From Escherichia phage SSL-2009a, in the sequence record NC_012223.2: 44,899 bases of DNA. The stretch is one strand, 5' to 3'. How positions within the stretch are numbered: the stretch's first letter is position 1; every line of letters begins with the position of its first letter. Positions 2,025 to 43,475 of the stretch are shown here, piece by piece. The translations under genes and the position numbers were made by a program. The notes beneath the pieces are model-generated. The model made no database searches and had not been told where the DNA came from. It saw only the letters and a list, made by a program, of their open reading frames with translations.

Positions 2025-3545
2025 ATGACCGTTAACGTTGACAACCAGCACCCGCTCTATGCGCGCATCGCGCCAGAGTGGAAAATGATCCGTGACTGCG
2101 TAGCAGGGGAGCGCGCCGTGAAGGCGTGCGGACCATTGTACCTGCCACACCCAGCCAGCGGCGACACCACCGACCCGAAATCGCGTGCGCGCTATAAGGC
2201 ATATAAGCAACGTGCTGTCTTCCTGAACGCCACCGCCCGCACACTGAATGCCCTGTTAGGCGTGGCCTTCGCCAAACCGGTGAGTATGGACCTTTCCGGG
2301 GCAATGGCGGACCTGATTGATGACGTAGACGGCAGCGGGATGCCGCTGGCGCAACTCCTGCGCGGCGCTATGTCGGAAGTGCTGCAATCGGGGCGCGCTG
2401 GCTTTATGGTGGACTACGACCGCCAGGCGCATTTTGATGAACTGGGTAACGTAGTGCCGCAGACAGCCGCTGAGATGGCGTCACACCGCCCGCTCATCCG
2501 CCTGTATACGGCTGAACAGATCATCAACTGGCGGCAGACACACGGCGTCGACACGCTAATCGTGCTGAAGGAGACGGACGAAATCAGCACCGAAGACCCG
2601 GACGACTTCGCAAACCACGAAGTTACAATCTGGACCGAGCTTCGCATGATTAACGGTGCGGCACACGCCCGCCGCTGGTTTTACAACGCGGACACGTCCG
2701 AGGTGCAAATGGACTTGCCGCGGGGATTCACCCGCACCGACCTTGTACCACTGGTGGATGCCGCCGGTAACGCGCTTACGCAACTGCCTTTCTGTTGGTG
2801 TGGCGCGGTGGATAACAATGCGACACCAGATGCCGCACCGCTGGCGGATATCGCGTCCATCAACATTAAGCACTACAACGCCGAAGCTGACGTCGCAGAG
2901 ATTGCGCACATCGTAGGTCAACCTACCCTAGTTGCGACCGGCTTGACCCAATCATGGGCTGATAAAAACCTGAAGGGCGGCATCGCGCTCGGGGCAACTA
3001 AAGGCGTCATCCTGGGTCAGAACATGGACGCTAAACTGCTTCAGGCGGAGGAGCGAAACCTGTCAGTTGCGCTGTGTGAGCGACGCGAATTGCAAATGGC
3101 TAAACTGGGCGCGGCCCTGGTCGAGAAGGGGACCGCACCTAAGACGGCAACTGAAGCGGCCTACGATGCGCAGACTGATAACAGTATCCTGTCACTTATT
3201 GCCGGTAACGTTGAGAAGGCTTTCAACCGTGCGCTGCAAATCGTCAAGCTGTTCACGGGGGACACCGCAGATCAACGTGTAACGCTGAATAAGTTCTACA
3301 CCGAGATCACGGTGGATGCACAGCTTATGACCGCGATGATGGCGGGTGTGCAGACCGGTACGGTCCGTCTGGCGGACTTTATCAAGTGGATGATGGCCCA
3401 GGGCGTTATCGATGACTCGCAAACCGTCGAGCAGGTGGAAGACGAACTGCGAAATCAGAATCCATTGCCTCAAATGTCCCCGGATGCGGTAGAATCTACC
3501 GAAGAAGACCCGGACAAGGTAGCGGACAATGGCGAAGACAATTAA
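2025..3545 (+). CDS. portal protein
   Basis: 506 aa ORF after terL, SD AGGAAA 6 nt before ATG, acidic C-terminus; canonical gene order. Confidence 0.75.
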   Translation: MTVNVDNQHPLYARIAPEWKMIRDCVAGERAVKACGPLYLPHPASGDTTDPKSRARYKAYKQRAVFLNATARTLNALLGVAFAKPVSMDLSGAMADLIDDVDGSGMPLAQLLRGAMSEVLQSGRAGFMVDYDRQAHFDELGNVVPQTAAEMASHRPLIRLYTAEQIINWRQTHGVDTLIVLKETDEISTEDPDDFANHEVTIWTELRMINGAAHARRWFYNADTSEVQMDLPRGFTRTDLVPLVDAAGNALTQLPFCWCGAVDNNATPDAAPLADIASINIKHYNAEADVAEIAHIVGQPTLVATGLTQSWADKNLKGGIALGATKGVILGQNMDAKLLQAEERNLSVALCERRELQMAKLGAALVEKGTAPKTATEAAYDAQTDNSILSLIAGNVEKAFNRALQIVKLFTGDTADQRVTLNKFYTEITVDAQLMTAMMAGVQTGTVRLADFIKWMMAQGVIDDSQTVEQVEDELRNQNPLPQMSPDAVESTEEDPDKVADNGEDN

Positions 3546-6226: not shown

Positions 6227-6250
6227 TGCAACCAATATAGCGCAACCAAT
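6227..6250 (-). promoter_or_regulatory. paired ATTGGTTGC half-sites (minus-strand orientation) upstream of gene 5884-6198
   Basis: tgcaaccaat (6227-6236) and gcaaccaat (6242-6250) on + strand; TATATT between them on the minus strand; member of the recurrent dyad motif family. Confidence 0.45.
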
Positions 6251-26797: not shown

Positions 26798-27040
26798 TTA
26801 TTTAATCTCCGTTGTGCGGATTTCATTGCGTGGAATAAGTTTGCCGCCAATCTCCACCCAGCAGACACCGTAGCGCCATTGGGTATTACGTCCCGTTTGC
26901 TCGGCGTACACGGTCTTGCATTCGTAGCGTTCCGTGTAGTAAATAGCCGTCGAAGGTATGCCAATACAACCGGCAATCATGAGGGTGAGTAGCACCCAAA
27001 ATCGAAGGTCGCCGTCGTAGTCGAAAAATAATGATTTCAT
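26798..27040 (-). CDS. small membrane protein
   Basis: 80 aa, SD GGAGA; one predicted TM helix (FWVLLTLMIAGCIGIPSTAIYY). Confidence 0.45.
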   Translation of the reverse strand: MKSLFFDYDGDLRFWVLLTLMIAGCIGIPSTAIYYTERYECKTVYAEQTGRNTQWRYGVCWVEIGGKLIPRNEIRTTEIK

Positions 27041-27059
27041 CTCACTGTCTCCGGGTATT

Positions 27060-27087: not shown

Positions 27088-27121
27088 AATATAATGCAAC
27101 CAATATGATTATGCAACCAAT
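27088..27121 (-). promoter_or_regulatory. candidate promoter with two direct ATTGGTTGCAT sites (-35 TTGCAT, 17 nt, -10 TATATT)
   Basis: atgcaaccaat at 27094-27104 and 27111-27121 (+ strand); on the minus strand the first copy supplies TTGCAT, the second fills the spacer, TATATT at 27093-27088. Confidence 0.5.
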
Positions 27122-35749: not shown

Positions 35750-36001
35750 TTATTTTGTCTCCCAGCGGTCAATTGTTTTTGCTTCGGATGCAACTGCGAA
35801 GCGAACATATTCCAGATTAGAATCCGCCCAAATATAAAAGTCGGGGTTAGTAAATGTGGTGCGCTTAATTTGCGCGGGGGTGTTGCGGCGTTTATCAATT
35901 ACAGCAACGCGCGATTGAAAGCTGCCGATGCGTTCGAATAACCAATAGTACGGGCGCTGGTCGCGGGAATCCACCGCCTCGATTAGCGTGAAGCGTGCCA
36001 T
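35750..36001 (-). CDS. hypothetical protein
   Basis: 83 aa, SD GAGGA 7 nt before ATG 36001. Confidence 0.45.
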   Translation of the reverse strand: MARFTLIEAVDSRDQRPYYWLFERIGSFQSRVAVIDKRRNTPAQIKRTTFTNPDFYIWADSNLEYVRFAVASEAKTIDRWETK

Positions 36002-36012
36002 TGTCTCGTCCT

Positions 36013-36041
36013 CTAAAAAGAGGCCCGCAGATTAGCGGGCC
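36013..36041 (-). terminator. intrinsic terminator on minus strand after the first gene of the leftward operon
   Basis: GGCCCGC-loop-GCGGGCC followed by UCUUUUU on the minus strand; overlaps the leader of the next gene. Confidence 0.45.
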
Positions 36042-36049
36042 GGATAATA

Positions 36050-36592
36050 TTAGTCTTCCAGTTCGAAATAAGTTTCGACGATTTCTTTTAGCTCGGTGTG
36101 GAAGTCTTCGACGTCGTCGTCTTCCAGTTTAGCGATTGATTTGATCTCGAACGATTCCAGCAGGTCGTCGAATTCGTCGTTCGCATCATCATCATCGCCG
36201 CCTGCAATAATAGCGGCATACTGTTTGATTTCGTCGCGCATCTCTGCCAGCGGGTCGGCTTCTTTCTTACCTTTGCCTTTCGCTGGTGCTTTTTTACCCT
36301 TCGCCGGTTTTTCGTCTTCGGCTTCATCATCATCGTCGTCATCCTCTACGACTTCTTTTTTGGCCTTTCCTTTAGACTTGGTTTCTTTTGCCGCGCCTTT
36401 TTTCGCCTTGGGCGTATCTTCGACTTCGTCCTGATCGTCGTCTTCGACTTCAGTCTCCGGCTTTGCCTTGCCTTTCTTAGCGGTGCCGTTTGCTTTTGGG
36501 CCTACGGCAGCGCCCACAGTTTCATAATGTTTAGCGATGGTTTCCAGTGCTACTACGCCGCGAGTGATCAGGTTTACGATTTGCTCAAACAT
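36050..36592 (-). CDS. highly charged acidic/lysine-rich protein (first gene of leftward early operon)
   Basis: 180 aa from ATG 36592 (SD GGAG 7 nt upstream; the six-frame ORF extends to 36820 but the upstream part lacks a start context); alternating poly-D/E and K-rich blocks. Confidence 0.5.
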   Translation of the reverse strand: MFEQIVNLITRGVVALETIAKHYETVGAAVGPKANGTAKKGKAKPETEVEDDDQDEVEDTPKAKKGAAKETKSKGKAKKEVVEDDDDDDEAEDEKPAKGKKAPAKGKGKKEADPLAEMRDEIKQYAAIIAGGDDDDANDEFDDLLESFEIKSIAKLEDDDVEDFHTELKEIVETYFELED

Positions 36593-36795
36593 GGTATATC
36601 TCCGATTGGTTAAGTTTAGGTGTCGGCAGTAAACTTCGTCGGTGGCCTTAACATAGTGCCAGGTTACGCGTTCTCCCTTTCGGGTAGTGGACCTGGTTAT
36701 ATAATCACGGTTGGGAATCCTGACACTTCGATCCGGCCCCTGCGTTGCCCCTCTCCAGTTTGCGTCCTGCATCCTGTCGACGAGGTGAATATTAG

Positions 36796-36805
36796 ATTGG
36801 TTGCA
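36796..36805 (+). promoter_or_regulatory. ATTGGTTGCA motif copy in the divergent control region
   Basis: Exact 10-mer; TTGCAG could serve as a -35 with TAATTT about 16 nt downstream. Confidence 0.35.
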
Positions 36806-36825
36806 GAAGGGAGTCAACAACTAAT

Positions 36826-36862
36826 TTAAAAAAAAAGCGCCGAAGCAAAATGCGACGGCGCT
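36826..36862 (-). terminator. terminator-like hairpin with A9/T9 tract in the divergent control region
   Basis: AGCGCCG-13 nt loop-CGGCGCT preceded on the + strand by AAAAAAAAA (U-run on the minus-strand transcript); no annotated gene upstream on the minus strand. Confidence 0.35.
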
Positions 36863-36932
36863 AACCAATAAGAGACAATGAGACGGGAGTATTATTACAC
36901 GCGTGCGCGCCCGTTTCAATATTCCAAAGGAG

Positions 36933-36961
36933 TTGACACCCTGCGGTTTTAGGTGTAGTTT
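36933..36961 (+). promoter_or_regulatory. candidate sigma70 promoter for the rightward early operon (TTGACA, 17 nt, TAGTTT)
   Basis: Consensus -35 TTGACA at 36933-36938, 17-nt spacer, weak -10 TAGTTT; about 30 nt upstream of ATG 36993. Confidence 0.4.
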
Positions 36962-36962
36962 C

Positions 36963-36979
36963 GTTGGTCATTAACCAAC
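36963..36979. promoter_or_regulatory. inverted repeat GTTGGT-catta-ACCAAC overlapping the leader of the HTH gene
   Basis: Perfect 6-bp arms; the arm sequence matches the core of the ATTGGTTGCA family. Confidence 0.35.
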
Positions 36980-36992
36980 CGGAGACAGAATA

Positions 36993-37322
36993 ATGAATAT
37001 CAACGACGCAATCGAAATGTTAACTAAGACTGTTTGCAGTGAGACTAGCCGGTCGTGGGCTTATACCGATGCCGTTGGGGCGGTGCTATTTGAGGTCGAG
37101 CGCCTGCGCAGTGTAGAAAAAGAATTACGCGCCAGGCTGGAATTGCTCAACGGTACAGCGGCGAGCAAGCTGCAGAAGCACAATGAAGAAATGGAAGAAT
37201 ATAAAAAACAGGTTATCAGTTTGCGCGCCGAGGGCAAATCCTGGGCGATGATTGCCGAGTTGACCGGAATTAATCAGAGCACAGTGCGCTCCTGGGTACG
37301 CAATAATAAAACTTCTAAGTAA
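36993..37322 (+). CDS. helix-turn-helix DNA-binding protein (putative transcriptional regulator)
   Basis: 109 aa, SD GGAGA; C-terminal HTH-like segment SWAMIAELTGINQSTVRSWV. Confidence 0.55.
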   Translation: MNINDAIEMLTKTVCSETSRSWAYTDAVGAVLFEVERLRSVEKELRARLELLNGTAASKLQKHNEEMEEYKKQVISLRAEGKSWAMIAELTGINQSTVRSWVRNNKTSK

Positions 37323-37332
37323 GGTCACGGCA

Positions 37333-39597
37333 ATGAGCTTAATTAAATTCGCTGTAACAAGACCCGCTAAAAAAGGCGAAAAAGCCAGGGCGGAAAACTT
37401 CCAGATGACTACCGAAGAGTTTTTCGAATTTATCAATGATGCGAAAGAAATCTCCTCGGTGCATATCAACAAAACGGAAGATAAAGCCGAGTATGCACGC
37501 CGCAAGCGTAAGGCCGACGGCATCGTGGCGTATACCAGTGACGGATTGCGTCGCAAGACCAGTGCGGTGGACCGCTCGATCCTGTTCTTCGATATTGACC
37601 GTACTGACACCCGCACCCTACGCCGCTGCCGTAAGGCGTTCACCGACGCGGGACTGGAGCACGTCTTCCACACCACAACCGGCGACCGTCACCCACTGAA
37701 AGGTGGAACGCGTTGCGCTCGCTTCCTTGTGTTGACCGACAAGCCTGTACCGGCTGAAGACCTGGGCCGTGTCCAGTATGCGCTATTACACCAACTGGGC
37801 CTGTCAGACGTGGACTTCGACGACTGCACGAAAGACACAAACCGCCTTATGTACCTGCCACACCAGCAGTCTGTTATTAAGTGCCACTATGGCAAGCGCG
37901 CCCGCGTCCGTCGTCTGCTCCGCCAGGCTGACAAGCTGGGAGTTGAGAAAGAGGAAGTCCGCCGCGAACTGACCCAGGGCGACGACGCAGTGGCAGACGG
38001 CATTCTGGACTGGTGCTTCCAGGCAGGATTCGAGGAGTTATCTTCCGGTCGCGGTTATGAAGTGCCGTGCCCGAACGAACATCTGCACAGCGGCGAAGGG
38101 TCAACGGCTATCATGGTCAAGGATGGCGAGATCCGTTTCAAGTGTATGCACACCGGCAACGAGTGTTGCTCGGAACTGAATAGACACCAGCACCTGGCGC
38201 TACGTCTTATAGGTATCCCGGACCACCTGAACGTCGAGCCACACAATATGTCCCGTAAGCAAATCGCCGCCATCCTGCCGGGGTTGGACGACGAGGAGGT
38301 CGAATCCTTATACGAACATATTGTTGATGCGGTTGGTGACGGCGAAGAATACGGCGTGTGCACCGATGCGGATCTGGATAACGAGCCGGTCGCACTATTC
38401 AGTAAGCACGACCCGATTATCGAGGGGTTGATTAACTTTAAATCGACCTGGTATCTCGCCGGTGAGTCGAACATTGGTAAGTCTTTCTATGTGCTGGGGC
38501 AAATGGCGTCAGTATCTGCCGGTATTCCGTTTGGGGGGGCGAAGGTCGTCCAGTGCCACAACTTCTATTTCGATGCGGAAGGTGGCGAAGCCTCAAATCA
38601 GCGTAAAGAAGCATTGCAGATTAAATACGAGCACGACCTGGACAAGCTGCACATTATCGATCTGCAATCACGCGGCTGGGATATCACCAGCAAATCCGGC
38701 TTGCGCGAAGTTATCAGCTTCATCAACCGCACCGCTAACGGCGAACCAGTTGGCCTGGTGGCGTTCGACTCACTCAACCAGACTGTTGCGCTGCGGTCCG
38801 CCGATGCTAAACCGTTTGACGAGAACAACGCCAGCGATATGGGTGAAGTGGTCAAAGCGCTGAAAGCCATTGCGGAAAATACAGGTGGCAGTGCTGGCGT
38901 CATCCACCACCCGGCGAAAGGTGCAAACGGCAGCAGAACCCCACGCGGATCCGGTGCGCTGCATGGTGCTGTCGATTCAGCTTTCTTCCTGGAACAGCCA
39001 GACGACAACCAGCCAGGCCAATTGAACCTGTATCACGAAAAGTCACGTAACGGCATCAAGCAAGCGCCGCGTGGCTTCGTCCTGCTCAAGTGCAAGGTGA
39101 AGGTAGATCTCCGCAAGTCGGAAGCGTTCGCGTCGCACCAGTCCACCAGCACCGGGCCGGACTTCGGCGACGTCGTTGCCGGTTGGGACGTCAAACCAAT
39201 TGCGTCCACGCCACGCGACGAGACTCTATACCTCGTACCGGTCGCCCTGGCACCGTTCGCTATAGAACAGGCGAAGGCCGCAGGGAAAGCCGCAGTTAAG
39301 GAAGAGAACACCGCAGGACCGCGCAACGAAAAAGAGAAAGTGCTTTATGCGGCCCTGGAAAAACTGATGGAAGATAACCCGGACCATACTGGATTCAGTA
39401 AATCGGCAATCGTCCGCCAGGCGGGACTCGCGAAGGGGGGCACTTCGACGAAGGCAATCGACGATATGGTCGAGCGCGGCGTGATTGGTTTCTATACAGA
39501 TCCGCACACCGGGGCCATCTATGGGTCGTCGAATTTAGTTATCAAATCGGATATCCCCATTACGCTTTCGGCGACCGATGACGACCTGAAAGATTAA
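37333..39597 (+). CDS. DNA primase/helicase-type replication protein (P-loop ATPase with zinc-binding region)
   Basis: 754 aa; Cys/His cluster CPNEHLHSGEG...FKCMHTGNECC; Walker A GESNIGKS and Walker B-like LVAFDSLNQ; immediately followed by iteron locus B. Confidence 0.7.
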   Translation: MSLIKFAVTRPAKKGEKARAENFQMTTEEFFEFINDAKEISSVHINKTEDKAEYARRKRKADGIVAYTSDGLRRKTSAVDRSILFFDIDRTDTRTLRRCRKAFTDAGLEHVFHTTTGDRHPLKGGTRCARFLVLTDKPVPAEDLGRVQYALLHQLGLSDVDFDDCTKDTNRLMYLPHQQSVIKCHYGKRARVRRLLRQADKLGVEKEEVRRELTQGDDAVADGILDWCFQAGFEELSSGRGYEVPCPNEHLHSGEGSTAIMVKDGEIRFKCMHTGNECCSELNRHQHLALRLIGIPDHLNVEPHNMSRKQIAAILPGLDDEEVESLYEHIVDAVGDGEEYGVCTDADLDNEPVALFSKHDPIIEGLINFKSTWYLAGESNIGKSFYVLGQMASVSAGIPFGGAKVVQCHNFYFDAEGGEASNQRKEALQIKYEHDLDKLHIIDLQSRGWDITSKSGLREVISFINRTANGEPVGLVAFDSLNQTVALRSADAKPFDENNASDMGEVVKALKAIAENTGGSAGVIHHPAKGANGSRTPRGSGALHGAVDSAFFLEQPDDNQPGQLNLYHEKSRNGIKQAPRGFVLLKCKVKVDLRKSEAFASHQSTSTGPDFGDVVAGWDVKPIASTPRDETLYLVPVALAPFAIEQAKAAGKAAVKEENTAGPRNEKEKVLYAALEKLMEDNPDHTGFSKSAIVRQAGLAKGGTSTKAIDDMVERGVIGFYTDPHTGAIYGSSNLVIKSDIPITLSATDDDLKD

Positions 39598-39607
39598 ATT
39601 TTGCGCG

Positions 39608-39653
39608 CATTGGTTGCCATTTTGTGTGCTTTTAGCTGGTCGCATTGGTTGCC
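39608..39653 (+). promoter_or_regulatory. two direct CATTGGTTGCC motifs downstream of the primase gene
   Basis: Copies at 39608-39618 and 39643-39653 (35-bp spacing), directly upstream of iteron locus B. Confidence 0.4.
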
Positions 39654-39699
39654 GTGTAGTGTAAATATAGTGCATAGTTATGCAATAAAACTGCATAAA

Positions 39700-39860
39700 G
39701 TAAGCGGGACAAAAAGCGGGACAAACCAGGGGCGGGACAAAGCGGGACAGCACCCCTGTCCCACCCCGGATGACGCGGCCTGGCGGGGAGCGGGACAGGC
39801 GGGACAACTCCCAGTCTTTCAGACTAGACGGGGGTCAGCGGCCCCCCTCGTCTGAGACTG
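39700..39860. repeat. iteron/palindrome-rich element B (second copy of the 150-bp GCGGGACA element; putative origin-associated)
   Basis: Six direct GCGGGACA units, one GGGACAG-cacccc-CTGTCCC palindrome, and the same terminal hairpin as locus A; near-identical to 11978-12137. Confidence 0.7.
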
Positions 39861-40014
39861 CATAAAATCCGGGATTGCAAAATACACGGCAGCATGTTGC
39901 GGATTGCGGTCGTCGCTGAACTAGGCAACCAATGCGAGTTGCAGAACGGTGGGTGGGAAATGCAGTTTGCAGTCACAGCAGATAGCGATCAACTTTTTCA
40001 TGCGCATGATTAAT

Positions 40015-40055
40015 ATTGGTTGCATTCGTGCCAGCACCCTGCTAGATTGGTTGCA
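40015..40055 (+). promoter_or_regulatory. candidate promoter/operator (ATTGGTTGCAT as -35, TAGATT -10, second ATTGGTTGCA over -10/+1)
   Basis: TTGCAT 40020-40025, 17 nt, TAGATT 40043-40048; second motif copy 40046-40055; SD GAGGA 40065-40069; ATG 40077. Confidence 0.5.
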
Positions 40056-43297: not shown

Positions 43298-43324
43298 AGC
43301 CCGGATAATACCGGGCTTTTTATT
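43298..43324 (+). terminator. rho-independent terminator after Ig-like gene
   Basis: GCCCGG-ataata-CCGGGC followed by TTTTTATT. Confidence 0.6.
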
Positions 43325-43331
43325 GCTTGAC

Positions 43332-43369
43332 TTGCAACCAACATAGGGGCCATACTGCAACCAACCAAT
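43332..43369. promoter_or_regulatory. two TGCAACCAA motif copies (reverse orientation)
   Basis: ttgcaaccaa 43332-43341 and tgcaaccaaccaat 43356-43369, just upstream of the micro-ORF SD. Confidence 0.4.
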
Positions 43370-43385
43370 AAGAGGAGTAATCAAG

Positions 43386-43475
43386 ATGACACGTAACGAT
43401 ATTTGGGTATTAGCAATCTGGACCACCGCGGCTTTTATTGGCATGGTTATTTGCGAGGTGATGTATGGCTTTTAA
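43386..43475 (+). CDS. hydrophobic micro-protein (29 aa, single predicted TM helix)
   Basis: MTRNDIWVLAIWTTAAFIGMVICEVMYGF; strong SD AGAGGAG 8 nt upstream of ATG 43386; found by manual translation. Confidence 0.4.
   Translation: MTRNDIWVLAIWTTAAFIGMVICEVMYGF

Follow-up and report, generated by a model that had tools for sequence, protein, structure and literature searches.

What does a transcription terminator end when no gene lies upstream of it? The question arises in Escherichia phage SSL-2009a (NC_012223.2), a member of Dhillonvirus, a genus of virulent Escherichia coli siphophages with genomes of ~44 kb, which we analysed as a stretch of 44,899 nucleotides, hereafter the window. Between its leftward and rightward early operons lies a gap of 400 bp that a first-pass annotation, made from the sequence alone, had described as a divergent control region with an orphan terminator on the minus strand. 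The terminator was suggested to end a short antisense or regulatory RNA, or to insulate the leftward promoter, and the long open reading frame (ORF) drawn through the region was held not to be a gene. Here, we propose that the orphan terminator most likely ends a conserved regulatory RNA of ~56 bases that has a promoter of its own. On our best reading of the sequence, this is an undescribed trans-acting small RNA (sRNA) that would damp the translation of early genes. A second RNA, a structured leader, lies under the supposed reading frame. All sequence features listed in the first-pass annotation were found on direct reading, with slight shifts of coordinates, and its three proposals are supported, the support being comparative and thermodynamic in kind.

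A predicted transcription unit at the orphan terminator

The terminator occupies 36828-36862 on the minus strand. Its stem (AGCGCCG..GCA/UGC..CGGCGCU, 36862-36836) is built of a 7-bp GC stem, a 2x2 loop and a 3-bp stem, and runs into a tract of nine U (36836-36828); a repeat search delimits the hairpin at 36837-36861, closed by A36836/T36862. The A9-hairpin element reported earlier is present, although its A9 tract spans 36828-36836 and does not start at 36826. That it could terminate only on the minus strand was read correctly, as the plus-strand reading of the hairpin continues into AACCAAUAAG, which contains no U tract. The minus-strand fold reaches -16.2 kcal/mol (z = -3.8), a stability equalled by none of 200 shuffles, and the record of phage CS16 annotates the hairpin as a 'terminator'. 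A simple consensus scan for terminators passed over it on account of the 2x2 internal loop in the stem.

We compared 29 distinct sRNA variants drawn from GenBank, IMG/VR and metagenomes, and scored column variability over 23 distinct aligned intergenic regions of relatives. In the lineage of L014, L021 and L038, the stem GCGCCG/CGGCGC has become UCCCCG/CGGGGA, with double compensatory changes at two positions. In relative L017 it is an unrelated 8-bp helix (AUCCCCAG/CUGGGGAU); this hairpin is misregistered in the alignment, and its pairs were read by hand. All variants carry 8-13 U after the hairpin. What is conserved is structure rather than sequence, which points to an intrinsic terminator made of a hairpin and a U tract.

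Just upstream on the same strand stands a candidate promoter, P_s (36891-36919), with the -35 element TTGAAA (36919-14), a 17-nt spacer and the extended -10 element TGtAATAAT (36899-91). It is the best promoter-like site in a 2-kb scan (10/12 matches plus the TG), none of the nine columns of its extended -10 is variable, and hexamers at a spacing of 16-18 nt together with an extended -10 TG argue for recognition as a sigma-70 promoter. Transcription is predicted to start at about G36884, 22 nt upstream of the hairpin, and would yield an RNA of ~56 nt (36884 to ~36829, minus strand) consisting of a single-stranded 5' part (5'-GUCUCAUUGUCUCUUAUUGGUUA), the terminator hairpin (AGCGCCGUCGCAUUUUGCUUCGGCGCU) and a U tail. 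Among the 23 columns of the 5' part, which is unstructured in the predicted fold, only one is variable, owing to the loss of a single nucleotide in one lineage. By contrast, the discriminator, which runs from the -10 to the predicted start and in the window comprises the untranscribed 6 nt beside the 5' end of the sRNA, is hypervariable, with 8/9 columns affected and a length that varies too.

Neither strand of the sRNA region carries an ORF that is conserved among the aligned relatives, in keeping with the earlier statement that no minus-strand gene precedes the terminator. Two minus-strand ORFs (36821-36919 and 36861-36971) were considered and rejected, as two sites of 1-nt indels differ among relatives without compensation. 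A promoter, a terminator and the lack of a conserved ORF together argue in silico for an independent transcription unit. The suggestion that the terminator ends a short regulatory RNA gains support from P_s and from the invariance of the stretch between start and hairpin amid variable flanks, and we consider it probable that the sRNA is made. The antisense part of that suggestion fares less well: no conserved plus-strand gene or leader lies over 36829-36884, and the rightward promoter P_R starts ~85 bp further right, such that pairing, if any, would be in trans. Insulation of the leftward promoter, P_L, is likewise plausible, as the terminator ends 10 bp before the P_L -35, and is compatible with an RNA product rather than an alternative to it.

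A cmscan search of Rfam 15 (E <= 10) gave only sub-threshold terminator-like matches to the sRNA, and the best scores at both RNA elements were 17-22 bits against gathering thresholds of 39-79. Among 5,426 E. coli genomes there was no copy of the sRNA and no match to the leader RNA, and an origin in the host, or mimicry of it, was rejected for both RNAs on this ground.

Complementarity to early-gene start regions

What might such an RNA act on? Read as its reverse complement, the 5' part becomes an idealised ribosome-binding region of an early gene, AACCAAU-AAGAGACA-AUG-AGAC. The 14-mer TAACCAAYNRGAGA occurs three times in the 400 bp, once in the sRNA gene and once in each flanking leader, compared with 0.10 copies expected for the whole window, and Shine-Dalgarno (SD) contexts of the GAGAC type stand upstream of seven genes, all in the early region. 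The real seed forms duplexes of -15 kcal/mol or better with 15 of 78 start regions, compared with 4.2 +/- 2.9 for 300 shuffled seeds (p ~0.007). The top 12 of these 78 by duplex include genes one to three of the leftward operon and the gene that opens the rightward one.

The start region of the first leftward gene (36590-36613, minus strand; ATG 36592-36590, SD GGAGA 36603-36599, UUAACCAAU 36613-36605) is a candidate target with a predicted duplex of -17.9 kcal/mol, and the leader and start of the first rightward gene, which encodes a helix-turn-helix (HTH) protein (36968-36995, plus strand; UAACCAACCGGAGACAGAAUAAUG), is another at -18.2 kcal/mol. At the start of the second leftward gene (35996-36012, minus strand; ATG 36001-35999), GAGACAAUGG is complementary to nt 4-13 of the sRNA and gives 10 pairs across the start codon (nine Watson-Crick and one G-U); it is kept in 21 of the 22 relatives checked, and the variant in L037 is U-G-compatible. 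The start region of the primase-helicase gene (37318-37341, plus strand; GGCAAUGAGC) holds, in the window, a 7-nt complement to the 5' end of the sRNA.

The strongest evidence for a mode of action appears to lie in the divergent lineages L021 (phage Ioannina) and L017. In each, the primase-helicase start contains a 12-nt perfect complement to the 5' end of the phage's own sRNA (GAGACAAUGAGA in L021 and GACAAUGAGCAA in L017), a match reached in 0/5000 shuffles in either case. The L017 sRNA carries a G where other sRNAs have a U, and its primase site co-varies. In addition, L017 has a replacement of the left-gene start region as well as of the hairpin-proximal seed, and the two still pair (ACUCCUGAA with UUUAGGAGU). 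On these comparisons, the sRNA seems to possess a conserved seed that is complementary to its targets and that co-varies with them.

We therefore envisage the following mechanism. P_s, to all appearances a strong host-type promoter, would fire leftward, and the transcript would meet the GC hairpin and U9 ~56 nt on. Its 5' part would pair in trans with the SD and start-codon regions of early mRNAs, the candidate targets being the primase-helicase gene, the leading gene of each of the two divergent operons and the second gene of the leftward one. Ribosomes would be unable to load on a paired mRNA, such that synthesis of early and replication proteins would be limited or shut off as the sRNA accumulates. 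The terminator would also shield P_L from read-through, and its T-tract DNA would probably serve as a P_L UP element. That the sRNA is both made and acts on phage early start regions we judge to be evenly poised between true and false.

Several points weigh against this proposal. The window's own primase match of 7 nt is equalled by 200/5000 shuffles, and the duplexes of the two flanking leaders rank roughly 25 and below among genome-wide 30-nt windows. The SD region of the rightward leader varies among relatives and the sRNA does not, and therefore extended pairing there is not maintained. CU-rich RNA of any kind has some affinity for purine-rich start regions, and the shared AACCAA core is also part of an over-represented DNA motif, ATTGGTTGCA, found at or near +1 of several promoters. 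The P_s spacer of L014 is 15 nt, not 17. Finally, a literature search found neither a transcriptome or sRNA study of any Dhillonvirus nor the sequences themselves.

Two sites elsewhere in the window may be recorded here. The genome's best predicted sRNA site at a gene start (GGAGACAGUGAGAUG, -22.8 kcal/mol) belongs to an 80-aa gene (26798-27058, minus strand) that lies downstream of paired ATTGGTTGCA-family copies at 27095 and 27112. At 43300-43475, a terminator is followed by a P_L-like promoter (TTGACT, TGCAACCAAC in the spacer, CATACT), whose leader is AACCAAUAAGAGGAG, a 12-nt complement of the sRNA, and then by an unannotated 29-aa hydrophobic ORF (ATG 43386).

Alternative explanations

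Could the sRNA be made and yet act elsewhere? Its targets might be host mRNAs or a host protein, in takeover or anti-defence, with the similarity to phage start regions a by-product. A seed that stays invariant while the phage leaders drift is what a conserved host partner would lead one to expect, the phage leaders do not come top in the genome-wide duplex scan, and known phage sRNAs often act on host genes (PMC12197685). However, in two lineages the 12-nt complement at the start codon of the primase-helicase gene has varied together with the sRNA, and in L017 seed and left-gene start region have been replaced together, and we regard a host target as unlikely.

Slightly less probable again is an explanation at the level of DNA, which is the main rival where the shared AACCAA core is concerned. 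Here the ATTGGTT/AACCAA cores at 36605, 36796, 36863, 36963 and 36974 would be operator half-sites for the HTH protein, and P_s with its terminator merely an insulator, decoy or UP element whose transcript has no function. The ATTGGTTGCA family is indeed strongly over-represented, with 18 copies at <=1 mismatch in the window against 3.5 expected (0/100 shuffles reach 18), and at several promoters its copies, which face either way, sit in the spacer, at the -35 or at +1. Moreover, the 400 bp hold five TTGGT cores, where ~0.35 copies of TTGGTT/AACCAA would be expected from the window-wide hexamer count; the HTH encoded by the first rightward gene is similar to sigma-70 region 4; and T9-AAATTAG occupies the UP-element position of P_L. 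Yet of the 23 invariant sRNA nucleotides an operator would explain only 7 and leave the other 16 unaccounted for. Nor does it account for an invariance that stops exactly at the predicted start, or for a hairpin that co-varies as RNA, and the 12-nt primase matches in L021 and L017 contain no ATTGGTT core.

The OOP RNA of phage lambda was once proposed as a primer or activator of the replication origin. A short leftward transcript might similarly prime or activate an origin beside the primase-helicase gene, with the TTGGTT cores as iterons. The position next to a replication gene, the A/T tract and the clustered short repeats would fit, and so would another five motif copies, clustered immediately beyond the primase-helicase gene (39609-40055). 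We consider this improbable, as the motif occurs at >=10 intergenic sites genome-wide, in association with promoters, as priming needs neither an efficient terminator nor a conserved unstructured seed, and as OOP itself proved not to be a primer (PMC12197685).

Least credible is a small protein, encoded by a plus-strand ORF of 24 codons from ATG 36877 or by a minus-strand ORF as annotated in KarlBarth and CHD5UKE2: TAACCAATAAGAGACAATG does resemble the start regions of both flanking genes and automated annotation calls ORFs here in some records, but these do not agree on strand, frame or length, relatives L002, L009, L010, L012 and L014 carry net frameshifts, the AGAG of the SD-like AAGAG is only 3 nt from the ATG, and no plus-strand promoter is predicted upstream. 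The mini-ORF at ATG 36877 was itself rejected on the uncompensated 1-nt indels of several relatives.

A structured leader RNA under the supposed reading frame

In addition to the predicted sRNA, the control region encodes what is the more unusual object of the two. The ORF at 36620-36829 (plus strand), which the first-pass annotation had dismissed for want of a start context, exists in the window and overlies a structured 5' leader RNA of the leftward operon (36622-36781, minus strand). The leader is ~160 nt long and begins at or near the P_L start site; the covariance-model match in the window spans 36620-36790. It is closed by helix P1 and further comprises a P2 hairpin whose loop reads AGGAY, P3/P3a, a P4 hairpin and P5. 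Members of the family lie at L042:1187-1356, L043:1155-1325, L044:1188-1357, L057:8635-8804 and L092:8445-8615. Homologues of 75-87% identity are found in Drexlerviridae (PHB17, tunus), in Jilinvirus (Arya) and in other virulent enterobacterial siphophages, at one copy per genome in ~170 phage records, and the leader is thus common to several unrelated phage groups. Each copy follows immediately on a sigma-70 promoter and precedes, by 10-40 nt, the SD of small early genes that are unrelated.

The dismissal of the ORF was right, as the copies outside Dhillonvirus have stops in all frames. In addition, segment 36622-36775 is an indel that is missing from 10 of the 25 relatives examined, which have ~15 nt instead. 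Both observations led us to reject the ORF together with the N-terminal extension of the left gene in phage JL1 (ATG 36772). Left-gene extensions or small ORFs are drawn through the control region in several GenBank records, namely JL1 (L001) 2551-3273, Ioannina 159-893, L020, L039 and L041, inconsistent in strand and frame. These annotations are probably artefacts, and spurious ORFs and N-terminal extensions of this kind are a practical reason for describing the region correctly.

The fold itself is supported by covariation. About 75 junction and loop nucleotides are invariant across the Dhillonvirus, Drexlerviridae and Jilinvirus copies, and P3 occurs in nine fully paired versions, for example CCAGGU/ACCUGG, CAUGAU/AUCAUG, CAUUGG/CCAAUG and CGCAC/GUGCG. 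Strands from the same lineage pair better than strands from different lineages (-10.8 vs -4.8 kcal/mol for P3 and -12.0 vs -6.4 kcal/mol for P1). In an alignment that was fitted to the model and leans toward it, 86.9% of cells are paired (71.7% in shuffles), both positions vary in 21 of the 33 pairs, and the covariation score is 0.361 against 0.156 (0/500 shuffles), slid controls reaching at most 0.096. RNAalifold on MAFFT alignments missed the variable helices owing to register shifts. Judged by its G-U pairs, the fold belongs to the gene-sense (minus) strand. Taken together, these comparisons argue for a conserved multi-helix fold in the 5' untranslated region.

With regard to novelty, the Rfam 15 search (E <= 10) returned no family match for the leader, and in four lineages nothing at all over it. 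Of the 33 matches to an 18-base leader pattern in metagenomes and bacterial genomes, ~18 were due to chance. As to how the leader might act, no terminator was found between leader and gene, and no evident pairing with the SD, that could form an expression platform. A role as antiterminator was considered and finds no support, as the terminator after the first left gene is present with or without the leader. That terminator, at 36022-36041 (minus strand) between the first and second leftward genes, is a strong and conserved intrinsic one (GGCCCGC...GCGGGCC and UCUUUUU), and therefore the leftward operon needs read-through or a second promoter.

The two RNAs are both previously undescribed, and a joint proposal for them can only be tentative: a constitutive sRNA directed against ribosome-binding sites would, from one promoter lying between them, jointly shut off both early operons, and with them the primase-helicase, and a horizontally mobile leader of ~160 nt, representing a new class, would bind a conserved host component (RNA polymerase, ribosome, nuclease or defence protein) or a metabolite. 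As a family, the leader lies outside Rfam 15 and the searched literature while showing strong covariation across its many phage records.

Relation to known RNAs

How does the predicted sRNA compare with characterised regulators? By its architecture, and by that alone, it would fit the trans-acting class, and it lacks the defining feature of the cis-antisense and processed classes. The OOP RNA of lambda is a 77-nt transcript from the constitutive sigma-70 promoter pO, with an intrinsic terminator, encoded in cis and fully complementary to the 3' end of cII. Like OOP, the predicted sRNA is short, phage-encoded and equipped with a promoter and a terminator; it lies in the early/replication control region and runs against the rightward genes. 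OOP represses an early regulator by base pairing (PMC12197685). Unlike OOP, the sRNA has nothing conserved opposite it and would pair in trans through ribosome-binding-site matches of 7-13 nt, and it belongs to a virulent rather than a temperate phage.

The sar RNA of P22 and the c4 RNA of P1/P7 are antisense RNAs that repress translation of an antirepressor by covering a ribosome-binding site. Of these, sar overlaps its target, and c4, which is cut from an operon transcript, has short discontinuous complementarity and pairs through structured loops. The masking of a ribosome-binding site by a small phage RNA is what we propose for the sRNA too, but its predicted form differs, as it would run from a promoter to a terminator of its own and present an unstructured seed at the 5' end, and there is no sequence or Rfam similarity. 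The leader excision and loop pairing that mark processed immunity RNAs (P1 c4, P4 CI) were likewise not seen.

There is an architectural likeness to the Hfq-type sRNAs of enterobacteria, including DicF of a prophage, which share the single-stranded seed, the U-rich stretch, a GC terminator hairpin with >=8 U and sites at the SD or start codon. In the predicted sRNA, the Hfq hallmarks (U-rich stretch, hairpin and U9) are recognised at the level of sequence. Unlike those RNAs, it is encoded by a virulent siphophage, its predicted regulon is the phage's own early genes, and it has no E. coli homologue.

Antisense RNAs of plasmids such as CopA (acting on repA of R1) and RNAI of IncB/IncI-alpha are constitutive short RNAs that pair at or close to the start of a replication-protein gene and thereby limit its translation; they are cis-encoded and highly structured, and pair through kissing loops. 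The 12-nt pairing at the primase-helicase start codon in L021 and L017 recalls them. The predicted sRNA differs in being encoded ~450 bp away, in its linear seed and in the weak 7-nt match in the window.

For the leader RNA, the nearest comparison is with the put RNAs of HK022, which are ~70 nt long and form two stem-loops, and with riboswitch leaders. Like these, it is promoter-proximal, located in cis and multi-helical, it heads a phage early operon, and its junctions are conserved while its helices co-vary. Unlike the put RNAs, it is ~160 nt long with five to six helices, and no terminator or SD-sequestering platform was found.

Why might this matter? Characterised phage sRNAs come almost all from temperate phages or prophages (PMC12197685), and small RNAs of virulent phages are barely charted. 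The region described here offers a tractable test case, being a compact conserved unit between early promoters with a short list of predicted targets that includes a replication enzyme. It raises the question of whether RNA times the shut-off of early genes in lytic phages, in a group that is widely used (the BASEL collection, therapy candidates).

Early promoters, candidate operators and neighbouring genes

Three conserved sigma-70-type promoters lie in the 400-bp gap, namely P_L, P_R and P_s, and the GenBank record of phage HK578 annotates the same three by consensus. The leftward early promoter P_L (36789-36817, minus strand) has the -35 TTGACT (36817-12), a 17-nt spacer and the -10 TAATAT (36794-89), with a predicted start at ~36781-83. 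It is kept in relatives, with TATCAT and TATTAT as allowed -10 variants, and the terminator's T tract, at about -46 to -54, may double as its UP element. In the rightward early promoter P_R (36933-36961, plus strand), the TTGACA noted earlier (36933-36938) is followed by a 17-nt spacer and the -10 TAGTTT (36956-36961), with a predicted start at ~36968; 0/6 columns of the -35 and 1/6 of the -10 are variable. Both outward promoters are kept in all relatives, in line with the divergent early control region described before.

The ATTGGTTGCA copy reported at 36796 extends to 36805 (plus strand), reads TGCAACCAAT on the gene strand and falls within the P_L spacer. None of its 10 columns is variable, and the motif has the same placement in the paralogous P_L-like promoter at 43328-43360. 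The palindrome GTTGGT (36963-68)-N5-ACCAAC (36974-79) is equally real, although it had been placed over the leader of the HTH gene. It straddles the predicted P_R start, at about -5 to +12, and because that start falls inside it we take it to be a DNA site, not an RNA hairpin. A hairpin is further contradicted by single-arm changes in relatives that are uncompensated. TTGGT-N5-ACCAAC recurs at -10/+1 of the promoters at 40046 and 6227. The P_L-spacer copy and the P_R palindrome are most likely operators, the palindrome being a candidate site for a dimeric DNA-binding protein. The binder is probably the HTH protein encoded first on the rightward operon.

Further members of the ATTGGTTGCA family lie at 6227, 6241, 22336, 25185/25197, 27095, 27112, 30053, 39609, 39644, 39924, 40015, 40046, 40564, 43333 and 43356. 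They are often paired 12-35 bp apart, occur in both orientations, and either fall in promoter spacers, supply a TTGCA -35 or overlap the -10/+1. As a set, the copies resemble operators of a phage regulator.

The genes on either side are readily delimited. The gap begins at 36593, as described, directly beside the start codon (36592-36590, minus strand) of the first leftward gene, which encodes a 180-aa acidic/lysine-rich protein. The first rightward gene (ATG 36993, plus strand) encodes 109 aa with the HTH domain at the C-terminus, matching Sigma70_r4_2, HTH_23 and HTH_28. Downstream of it lies the primase-helicase gene (ATG 37333, plus strand), with an AAA_25 domain. In HK578 (L018, 1055-1117) and CHD5UKE2 (L039), the sequence switches completely directly after the P_R -10, to another leader without the palindrome and another, longer HTH gene. 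The sRNA unit is the same, and HK578 retains the P_R -35 and -10 (TAGTAT). The breakpoint of this module swap falls at the promoter.

Distribution and records

The region is matched by 174 GenBank phage records, and JL1 is 97% identical to the window across the control region. A search of IMG/VR, in which the window is contig UViG_643677414, for further relatives returned only the same 15 contigs. Phages of Guernseyvirinae, Eiauvirus and Kagunavirus, whose primases are 37-41% identical, share the gene order, and a homologous sRNA unit was not found in them. The distantly related Edwardsiella phage eiAU-183 (L098) has, at ~1668-1712, a terminator on the minus strand only (A10 and a CCCGTATC hairpin) between its HTH and primase-helicase genes, which may end an RNA antisense to the primase start region. 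Lastly, the records named Campylobacter phage A144, Acinetobacter phage NJ01, Sodalis phage SO-1 and Pseudomonas phage Motto contain near-identical Dhillonvirus or T1-like sequence, and their host labels are therefore doubtful.

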